Below, piece after piece: positions 10,364-58,471 of a DNA stretch of 64,000 nucleotides. Position 1 is the first letter of the stretch, and each line of letters opens with the position of its first letter. The position numbers and the translations under genes were made by a program. The notes under the pieces were generated by a model that saw only the letters and a list, made by a program, of their open reading frames with translations, made no database searches and had not been told where the DNA came from. The stretch comes from Escherichia coli. GTDB taxonomy: Bacteria > Pseudomonadota > Gammaproteobacteria > Enterobacterales > Enterobacteriaceae. Where the stretch lies: the NCBI RefSeq assembly GCF_046105845.1, contig NZ_CP151004.1, one strand, 5' to 3'.

Positions 10364-10603
10364 AATAGTGGCCTTATGCAGATGAATGACGTCGCAAGCA
10401 ATTACTTAACGATCGATAACTAAATGATAGATGTGATCTGGATCACATACAAGATATTTTTTATAACAATCATTAATTAATTTAAAAATCTTTAAATTTC
10501 AGTTAAATAGAAAGCAATTATTTTTATGGTTTGTGGACTGGTGAACGGAGGTGATTATTTTTATAATAACCTTTCATTCACAGTCACCAGGTACAACGGC
10601 ATC

Positions 10604-21704: not shown

Positions 21705-21878
21705 TTCAGTGTCGATTTGTTTGACGGCTATCACGTTTCAACTTCAGATCATTGGAGAAGTTGCACATTTTGACAAAACATATGTCACAATATTTCAAAC
21801 GTGGTTATTCACCGCCCAATTTTCGGCGGTGAACTTTACTCGTTTTAGCCATTAATTACGAGCTTTAAAAAAACTCAT

Positions 21879-22676
21879 TCAACGGATGGATTGAAGGCGG
21901 GAAGCGTCGATGTGAAACAGACGGGCGAAGTTATCGGTGGTTACCTGCGCCAGTTCTTCAACGGCAACACCTTTCAACACAGCCATGTATTCTGCAACGT
22001 CACGAACCATCGCAGGTTGATTCTCTTTTCCTCGATGCGGAACCGGTGCAAGGTAAGGTGAGTCAGTTTCTACCAGTAACCGATCCAGGGGGACATAACG
22101 CGCGGCATCGCGCAGTTGCTCCGCATTACGGAAGGTCACAATGCCGGAAAAGGAGATGTAAAATCCGAGATCCAGTAATTTTCCCGCCGTTTCTCTGTCC
22201 TCTGTAAAACAGTGTAGTACGCCACCGCAATCCGTCACTTTTTCTTCGCGCAGAATTGCCAGCGTATCGGCGCGGGCGTCACGGGTGTGGACGATAACCG
22301 GCTTGTTCAGTTCACGACCAATCTGGATATGATGGATGAAGGACTCTTGCTGACGTACTTTAGTTTCCGGCGTGTAATAATAATCCAGCCCGGTTTCACC
22401 CAGCGCTACAACGCCCTCTTCTGCCGCCAGACGACGTAAATCTTCTACATCGTAGGGATCATTCTGGTTGAGTGGATGCACGCCACAAGAAAATACGACG
22501 TTGTCACGTTCGCCTACCAGATCCCGCATGTGTAAATAACCCGGTAATGTTGTGGCGACTGCCAGACAAAATTTCACATCGCGTGCGGCGGCTTTCGCCA
22601 GAACGTCATCCACGTCCTTATGCAAAGATTCATAATCCAGACCATCGAGATGGCAGTGTGAGTCGACTAAAAACAT
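21879..22676 (-). CDS. ycfH: TatD-family metal-dependent deoxyribonuclease YcfH
   Basis: Recognised N-terminus [11 protein letters not shown] (265 aa) at 22676; ORF track over-extended by 20 codons. Confidence 0.92.
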
Positions 22677-23691: not shown

Positions 23692-24329
23692 GCGTCCAAC
23701 TCCTTCACCCAGTGGGTCACGGTAGTGCGGATTGCACCCATCACGGCCTCCAGCGGCTGGGTGGCATCAATGGTATGAATGCTTTTATCTTGTGCTGCCA
23801 ATTCCAGATAGCGGGCGCGGGTGCGATTAAAGAAATCGAAAGACTCTTGCTCAATACGATCCAGCTCGCCGCGCGCACGCGCGCGTTTTAAGCCAACTTC
23901 CGGGGTAACATCGAGATAGAGCGTTAAGTCGGGGCGAAAATCCCCGAGAACAGCATCACGCAGTGTTGCCAGCATATGTTGATCAATACCACGTCCGCCG
24001 CCCTGATACGCCTGAGTGGAGAGATCGTGGCGATCGCCAATCACCCAGGTACCGTTAGCCAGCGCAGGTTTGATGACCGTTTCTACCAGTTGAACACGCG
24101 CGGCATAAAACATCAGAACTTCGGCTTTATCGGTAATGACTTCATCGCCTACCGATTTGATATCCAGCACCAGGCTTCTTAACTTTTCGGCAAGTTGCGT
24201 ACCGCCAGGTTCCCGAGTGAAAACCATGTCGCGGATACCCAGTTGCTCGAGCGTCTCAACCACCACGTTACGCGCGGTAGTTTTGCCTGCGCCTTCCAGC
24301 CCCTCAATGACGATATACTTACTGCGCAT
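23688..24329 (-). CDS. tmk: Thymidylate kinase
   Basis: 213 aa, [19 protein letters not shown]-loop; 4-bp overlap with holB start. Confidence 0.96.
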
Positions 24330-56765: not shown

Positions 56766-56816
56766 TTATCCTTTGTGTCCGGCAAAAACATCCCTTCAGC
56801 CGGAGCATAGAGATTA

Positions 56817-57863
56817 ATGACTGCACCATCCCAGGTATTAAAGATCCGCCGCCCAGACGACTGGCACCTTCACCTCCGCGATGGCGACATGTTAAAAACT
56901 GTCGTGCCGTATACCAGCGAAATTTATGGACGGGCTATCGTAATGCCCAATCTGGCTCCGCCCGTGACCAGCGTTGGGGCCGCCGTGGCGTATCGCCAGC
57001 GTATTCTTGACGCCGTACCTGCCGGGCACGATTTCACCCCGCTGATGACCTGTTATTTGACAGATTCACTAGACCCTAATGAGCTGGAGCGCGGATTTAA
57101 CGAAGGCGTGTTCACCGCTGCAAAACTTTACCCGGCAAACGCAACTACTAACTCCAGTCACGGCGTGACGTCAGTTGACGCAATCATGCCGGTACTTGAG
57201 CGCATGGAAAAAATCGGTATGCCGTTACTGGTGCATGGTGAAGTGACACATGCAGATATCGACATTTTTGATCGTGAAGCGCGCTTTATAGAAAGCGTGA
57301 TGGAACCGCTGCGCCAGCGCCTGACCGCGCTGAAAGTCGTTTTTGAGCACATCACCACCAAAGACGCTGCCGACTATGTCCGTGACGGAAATGAACGGCT
57401 GGCTGCCACCATCACTCCGCAGCATCTGATGTTTAACCGCAACCATATGCTGGTTGGTGGCGTGCGTCCACACCTGTATTGTCTACCCATCCTCAAACGC
57501 AATATTCACCAACAGGCACTGCGTGAACTGGTCGCCAGCGGTTTTAATCGCGTATTCCTCGGTACGGATTCTGCGCCGCATGCACGTCATCGCAAAGAGA
57601 GCAGCTGCGGCTGCGCGGGCTGCTTCAACGCCCCAACCGCGCTGGGCAGTTACGCTACCGTCTTTGAAGAGATGAATGCTCTGCAGCACTTTGAAGCATT
57701 CTGTTCTGTAAACGGCCCGCAGTTCTATGGCTTGCCGGTCAACGACACATTCATCGAACTGGTCCGCGAAGAACAACAGGTTGCTGCAAGCATCGCACTG
57801 ACTGATGACACACTGGTGCCATTCCTCGCCGGGGAAACGGTACGCTGGTCCGTTAAACAATAA
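56817..57863 (+). CDS. pyrC: Dihydroorotase
   Basis: 348 aa, [27 protein letters not shown] (metal-binding HLH motif). Confidence 0.97.
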
Positions 57864-57898
57864 AAATCGTAGCTTCCTGTTGTCATTAGGTCATTTTA

Positions 57899-57918
57899 AC
57901 TGTATAAACAACCAGTAT
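57899..57918 (+). promoter_or_regulatory. LexA (SOS) box upstream of dinI
   Basis: ACTGTATAAACAACCAGTAT: CTGT-N8-CCAG close to LexA consensus CTGT-N8-ACAG, ~20 nt upstream of dinI ATG. Confidence 0.65.
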
Positions 57919-57936
57919 ATTCAACAGGGGGCTATT

Positions 57937-58182
57937 ATGCGAATTGAAGTCACCATAGCGAAAACTTCTCCATTGCCAGCTGGGGCTATTGACGCCCTGG
58001 CTGGCGAACTTTCCCGCCGTATTCAGTATGCGTTTCCTGATAATGAAGGCCACGTATCGGTACGTTATGCCGCAGCGAATAATTTATCGGTTATTGGCGC
58101 GACAAAAGAAGATAAACAGCGCATTAGCGAAATTCTCCAGGAAACGTGGGAAAGCGCCGATGACTGGTTTGTCAGCGAATAA
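57937..58182 (+). CDS. dinI: DNA damage-inducible protein I
   Basis: Recognised 81 aa MRIEVTIAKTSPLPAGAIDALAGELSRRIQYAF...; ORF track entry 57805..58182 is over-extended upstream. Confidence 0.95.
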   Translation: MRIEVTIAKTSPLPAGAIDALAGELSRRIQYAFPDNEGHVSVRYAAANNLSVIGATKEDKQRISEILQETWESADDWFVSE

Positions 58183-58203: not shown

Positions 58204-58226
58204 GCCGGGTCGCCCCGGCTTTTTTA
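58204..58226 (+). terminator. Intrinsic terminator after dinI
   Basis: Hairpin gccgggtcgccccggc followed by tttttt. Confidence 0.8.
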
Positions 58227-58471
58227 TTTTACTTACGAATTTCGAGTACAAAATTTCTACACTTCCTCAAAATAATTGCACAATATGCTAAAAAAATATG
58301 AATGACATGCTGTTTTATTGTTCATATAAATCTTAAAAGCAAAAATTTATCTGTTCCCCCCTTTAAAAATTCGGTGAATACCCTTACTTATTGGTATACT
58401 GAAGTTGCTTCAGATAAAAACGCATTGAACCTCGAATAACGTTGTCTAGTAACACGAATTAGGGGGCCATG

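Follow-up and report, generated by a model that had tools for sequence, protein, structure and literature searches.

A very probable LexA operator overlapping the dinI promoter of an Escherichia coli-type chromosome, and an inverted repeat in the pyrC-dinI interval

Within a 64,000-nucleotide stretch of Escherichia coli DNA (hereafter the window), the site at 57898-57917 is, with very high probability, the LexA operator (SOS box) belonging to dinI on the chromosome of an E. coli-type genome. An earlier note on the same DNA had proposed a functional SOS operator here, a proposal now supported by the matrix score, the position relative to the promoter, conservation at 80 of 80 loci and the published induction of K-12 dinI. 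Sequence, matrix score, promoter-relative position, conservation and gene identity come from the present analysis; for the start site, damage induction, lexA dependence and LexA occupancy we rely on published work in K-12, Salmonella and Klebsiella. The dinI LexA operator is already known as a textbook SOS site and adds nothing new to biology. It was reportedly identified by Lewis et al. in 1994 and Yasuda et al. in 1996, and LexA ChIP-chip in E. coli is said to have been performed by Wade et al. in 2005.

Position and sequence of the LexA box

According to the earlier note, a CTGT-N8-CCAG palindrome sits directly upstream of dinI, with a second half-site deviating by one base from the consensus ACAG. 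The palindrome is indeed found there, with 19 nt between the end of the box and the dinI ATG, and the right half-site of the box reads CCAG. The span originally given, 57899-57918 (sequence ACTGTATAAACAACCAGTAT), contains the motif and lies one base off the canonical box, a trivial shift; the conventional 20-mer register for a LexA box is TACTGTATATATATACAGTA, and the wider sequence around the box is ...ttgtcattaggtcattttaaCTGTATAAACAACCAGtatattcaacagggggctattATG. Both halves of the CTG-N10-CAG core by which LexA boxes are recognized are intact, the single departure being C for A. Moreover, the 20-mer has an A/T-rich spacer and a score inside the range of validated sites. Of the 17 other K-12 boxes that have been published, 6 have the same C, so the CCAG half-site of the dinI box is a normal, tolerated variant.

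Table 1. Coordinates of the dinI operator, promoter, gene and flanking inverted repeat in the window
Feature	Position	Strand	Sequence	Basis or remark
Left arm of inverted repeat	57869-57882	+	GTAGCTTCCTGTTG (RNA GUAGCUUCCUGUUG)	Just upstream of the dinI -35 element, 5' of the transcription start
dinI promoter -35	57880-57885	+	TTGTCA	5/6 match to TTGACA; 17-nt spacer to the -10 element
LexA (SOS) box, 20-mer	57898-57917	.	AACTGTATAAACAACCAGTA	Sequence, matrix score, heterology index, conservation
16-mer core, CTGT-N8-CCAG	57900-57915		CTGTATAAACAACCAG	Sequence
dinI promoter -10	57903-57908	+	TATAAA	Within the box's left half; 7 nt from its end to the transcription start
dinI transcription start	57915	+	G	G of the right half-site CAG; transferred from K-12 by conserved alignment
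Right arm of inverted repeat	57922-57935	+	CAACAGGGGGCTAT (RNA CAACAGGGGGCUAU)	Covers the dinI Shine-Dalgarno sequence
dinI Shine-Dalgarno	57927-57931	+	GGGGG	5 nt before the ATG
dinI coding sequence	57937-58182	+		81 aa plus stop; Pfam, K-12 identity, annotation
dinI intrinsic terminator	58204-58229	+	GCCGGG-TCGC-CCCGGC + T-run	Terminator scan

Statistical support for the operator

The bare eight-letter motif was considered as evidence for an operator and rejected, since it occurs at chance frequency and a full matrix is needed. In the 64-kb window, CTGT-N8-CCAG alone gave three matches against 1.26 expected, with at least three found in 15 of 100 shuffles, and CTGT-N8-ACAG with at most one mismatch gave 20 matches against 19.2 expected. 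The discriminating information sits in the whole 20-mer, not in the eight-letter motif.

A log-odds matrix was therefore derived from the 18 K-12 LexA boxes listed in PMC3009722 Table 4, from which dinI was removed to leave a small set of only 17 sites. Scoring with a LexA position weight matrix was one of the checks that had been suggested, and it came out clearly in favor of the site. On the dinI-free matrix, the window box scored 25.8 bits, far above random: among 200 random 64-kb sequences the maximum averaged 12.5 bits, the largest was 21.6, and none reached 25.8. The 17 training boxes themselves scored 17.3-30.6 bits, 12 of them below the window box, and the K-12 dinI box scored 23.2 bits. 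The Berg-von Hippel heterology index (HI) computed from the same 17 sites was 3.26 for the window box versus 4.95 for the K-12 dinI box, for which a value of 4.8 has been published (PMC11228462 Table 1). Over the whole 64 kb and both strands, the runner-up LexA-like site reached 12.3 bits, 13.5 below the dinI box, which is the sole credible candidate LexA box in the window. That second-best site (TACCGATTTGATATCCAGCA) lies at 24150-24169, and its score is at chance level.

The dinI promoter, gene and locus

The hexamers TTGTCA and TATAAA with their 17-nt spacer read as a near-consensus sigma-70 promoter. In the consensus promoter scan, the sixth and last position of the -10 element has to be T, for which reason no dinI promoter was returned, and the promoter was placed by hand. 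This placement agrees with the published K-12 start, and the spacing of the two hexamers fits the mapped position. In K-12, the primary dinI start determined by dRNA-seq is NC_000913.3 1121509(-) (PMC12987492 Table 1); in that sequence, base 1121509 is the G in aaccaGtata and precedes the dinI ATG (1121487) by 22 nt. The start assigned to G57915 is thus one mapped in K-12, not in the window strain. Numbered on the dinI promoter, the LexA box extends from about -17 to +3; both the -10 element and the transferred start lie within it, the classical layout for an operator whose bound LexA would occlude RNA polymerase.

In the most likely mechanism, a LexA dimer would bind the imperfect palindrome CTGT-N8-CCAG at 57900-57915 and keep RNA polymerase off the dinI promoter. 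Upon DNA damage, RecA filaments would trigger LexA to cleave itself, and the dinI operator would be vacated. Derepression would then yield a short monocistronic dinI mRNA composed of a 22-nt leader, an 81-codon open reading frame (ORF) and the terminator at 58204-58229, and the DinI produced would in turn modulate RecA filaments.

The DinI ORF matched Pfam PF06183 over profile positions 1-63 of 63 (E = 2.1e-29; 102.1 bits, cut-off 24.2), and the 81-aa protein is identical to K-12 DinI. Among the neighboring ORFs, Pfam matches were Amidohydro_1 upstream of dinI and BssS and DAO downstream. The locus order is pyrC-dinI-bssS-solA, with the name solA coming from a 24-kb comparison, over which the window diverges from the closest complete genomes by about 0.5-1.2%. 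The genes pyrC, dinI and bssS are annotated over the matching 801 bp in 5,425 of 5,426 complete E. coli genomes. By its sequence, the window is an E. coli-type chromosome. Given the terminator that follows the gene, dinI is predicted to be a short single-gene unit.

Between this terminator and bssS lies a very A/T-rich non-coding stretch of about 240 nt (58230-58468). Elsewhere in the window, three Rfam elements scored above the gathering score, all expected for this E. coli region: the PyrC leader (56767-56816, +), the RNase E 5' UTR element (34725-35061, +) and the SraB sRNA (32696-32864, -).

Conservation across Enterobacteriaceae

One genome per species was taken to assemble 80 dinI loci of other Enterobacteriaceae from roughly 25 genera, including Escherichia, Citrobacter, Salmonella, Enterobacter, Lelliottia, Trabulsiella, Kosakonia, Kluyvera, Buttiauxella, Atlantibacter, Leclercia, Cedecea and Phytobacter. 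In all 80, pyrC lies immediately upstream of dinI on the same strand, and a LexA box is present at every one of these syntenic loci (two found by eye). At 78 of the 80 loci, a search of the 150 nt before the ATG found a box scoring 21.5 bits or more, and at 76 of them the box lies 18-21 nt from the ATG. At the Buttiauxella loci L065 and L083, the box (…TATAAATATCCAGTA) has been pushed beyond the 150-nt range by an insertion of about 125 nt. In an alignment of 77 sequences, CTGTATA, the -10 element, CAG, the TTG of the -35 element and the Gs of the Shine-Dalgarno sequence are invariant or nearly so, and the flanks vary.

Several loci carry rearrangements of their own. The Buttiauxella insertion, a structured element, separates the LexA box from dinI at about 20-150 nt upstream of the ATG and may resemble an ERIC/IRU repeat. 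In Trabulsiella (L036 and L037), an insertion of about 42 nt, located about 1-45 nt upstream of the dinI ATG, brings a new Shine-Dalgarno sequence, and the old GGGGG stays beside the LexA box. Six loci of the Citrobacter freundii-complex type (L008, L010, L011, L014, L015 and L018) share a 12-nt deletion (columns 27-38 of alignment A2), which removes the usual CTGTTGTCA -35 region and leaves TAGCCA 17 nt from the -10 element.

Comparison with known LexA-regulated systems

Published work describes the induction of dinI by DNA damage in K-12. dinI is listed among the LexA-regulated genes with a known SOS box (PMC6590174); it showed 49-fold induction by AZT with a 39-fold dependence on LexA cleavage (lexA3) (PMC11228462), has in UV one of its most prominent inducing agents (PMC3009722) and reached a log2 value of 3.7 under ciprofloxacin (PMC11002266). 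The K-12 dinI box, ACCTGTATAAATAACCAGTA (PMC3009722 Table 4), shares with the window box the pyrC-dinI locus, the 19-nt distance to the ATG, the CCAG half-site and the overlap with the -10 element and start site, and the DinI proteins are identical. The same CCAG half-site occurs in the K-12 boxes of recN, uvrB, uvrD, ruvA, cho and dinB, which differ from the dinI box in gene, spacer and position relative to the promoter.

In Salmonella, dinI was induced 22.8-fold by nalidixic acid, and its box lies 19 nt from the ATG (PMC8072944). The Salmonella enterica box has a low HI of 4.00 and the same ATG distance as the window box (PMC8072944 Table 1); however, its right half is the consensus ACAG (AACTGTATATATATACAGTA, S. 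arizonae L027), in contrast to CCAG in the window. A second Salmonella dinI box, 42 nt from the ATG, is very weak (HI 17.6) (PMC8072944). A similar second operator was considered for the window and rejected, as the corresponding position is the -35 region and has no LexA-site score. In Klebsiella pneumoniae, the LexA box and the start site of dinI overlap, and LexA occupancy in ChIP drops after mitomycin C (PMC10907235). The dinI-DinR arrangement of this organism includes an insert in the 3' UTR, specific to the genus, from which the sRNA DinR derives (PMC10907235), whereas only about 20 nt separate the dinI stop from the terminator stem in the window, which therefore has no DinR-type insert.

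A strain-specific allele of the promoter and operator

Compared with K-12, the window carries three substitutions in this region: T>C at 57892 in the promoter spacer, C>A at 57899 (box position 2) and T>C at 57909 (box position 12). Strain M8 also has the change at 57899, by which the consensus A is restored. Among complete E. coli genomes, 5,241 gave a match and none of these had the exact box allele, and over the 75-bp promoter no complete E. coli genome exceeded 97.3% identity. About 5,270 other E. coli sequences were compared in the promoter, and neither of the two T>C changes at 57892 and 57909 appeared in any of them. Metagenome contigs gave no exact match to the box allele, and a degenerate control found 29 contigs bearing the locus; none of these 29 had C at 57909 or 57892, and all carried the K-12 allele. 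The closest genome differs at five positions over 801 bp, three of which (57892, 57899 and 57909) fall within 18 bp. A phage donor of these clustered substitutions, such as a prophage dinI promoter, was sought and gave no phage match. A plasmid donor was likewise rejected, as the 'plasmid' matches were chromosome-sized or chromosome-derived and carried the ordinary allele.

Position 12 is a weakly informative spacer column in the 17 known boxes (six A, four C and seven T), and C also occurs there in the Citrobacter werkmanii and Kosakonia orthologs. For both reasons the changes are predicted to have little effect on LexA binding, and we infer that the window allele should bind LexA as well as the K-12 box does. 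It is unlikely that the operator is present and the changes at 57909, 57892 and 57899 measurably alter regulation, making it leakier or tighter than in K-12. Such an effect would fit the packing of three differences from the dominant E. coli allele into 18 bp, two of them absent from all matched complete genomes and from the 29 metagenome contigs, and the matrix predicts a slightly better site (25.8 versus 23.2 bits for K-12), mainly through the A at position 2. However, the low information at position 12 and the C found there in other genera speak against it, as do the unchanged CTG/CAG contact positions and -10 bases. The promoter and operator allele of the window could provide a natural experiment on the tuning of LexA repression by spacer positions.

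It is highly improbable that the site owes its likeness to a LexA box to a conserved AT-rich -10 region and is not bound by LexA: the left half does overlap the -10 hexamer, which is conserved in any case, and the short motif occurs at chance frequency, but neither the right CAG nor the flanking TA is part of the -10 element, and both are invariant or nearly so across genera, the 20-mer scores far beyond random sequence, the K-12 ortholog is 39-fold lexA-dependent (PMC11228462), and the Klebsiella ortholog is occupied by LexA in ChIP (PMC10907235).

An inverted repeat between pyrC and dinI

Besides the LexA operator, the interval contains an inverted repeat that pairs a segment preceding the -35 element with the dinI Shine-Dalgarno sequence (Table 1). 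RNA folding of 57850-57940 gave a 14-bp stem (-21.3 kcal/mol, z = -3.31) that encloses the dinI promoter and buries the Shine-Dalgarno sequence, and none of 200 shuffles was as stable. In a sliding-window control, 20 of 253 GC-matched windows (about six loci) folded as stably; for its GC content the fold is strong, though others match it. Since the stem includes U·G pairs, it would work only as plus-strand RNA, and as its left arm lies upstream of the dinI transcription start, it could form only in pyrC read-through RNA. In partition-function calculations, the probability that the Shine-Dalgarno sequence is unpaired was 0.00 in read-through RNAs starting at 57800-57860 and about 0.30 in the transcript from G57915.

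The pairing recurs across about 25 genera, and the variable outer arms covary modestly. The core CCCCCTGT (the form in most genera; RNA CCCCCUGU) paired with ACAGGGGG in the minimum-energy fold of almost every genus, and at the nine core positions (alignment columns 33-41) about 81-99% of the sequences have standard pairs. Changes in the left side of the core are mostly C>U, which preserves G·U pairs; other constraints, too, act on each of the two core arms. The outer arms paired at -17.56 kcal/mol in cognate combinations versus -16.76 ± 0.14 kcal/mol in non-cognate ones, and none of 20,000 permutations reached the cognate value, in a test that is inflated by relatedness. From the 77-sequence alignment, RNAalifold gave no consensus with the long-range stem; the support for the stem is drawn from per-sequence folds, counts of named structures and the comparison of cognate with non-cognate arms. 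At the distant locus L055, the Shine-Dalgarno sequence GGAGG pairs with a different upstream segment, GCCUCUG.

One possible role, which we advance tentatively and with more doubt than confidence, is that the hairpin may stop DinI translation from pyrC read-through RNA, so that DinI synthesis would come strictly from the LexA-controlled promoter. If real, this would be a simple means of protecting a tightly repressed gene against read-through when the gene upstream is metabolically regulated, and would amount to a design principle for tandem genes, small but general. Alternatively, the hairpin could be a 3' stabiliser or terminator of the pyrC mRNA. A terminator scan from the pyrC stop to dinI found no terminator-like site. 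In Trabulsiella, the hairpin persists though an insertion separates GGGGG from the ATG, which fits a function at the pyrC 3' end as well as insulation of dinI. A search of the searchable literature returned no description of a pyrC-dinI stem, and the inverted repeat may be new.

Two further observations concern structured segments. In the six Citrobacter loci with the 12-nt deletion, the hairpin is reduced to the outer stem GTAGCC/GGCTAC. In the window, the sliding-window control also showed low-GC segments with unusually stable folds on one or both strands at 21770-21880, 34580-34670, 38260-38380 and 10510-10600, and these are probably terminators or repeat elements.
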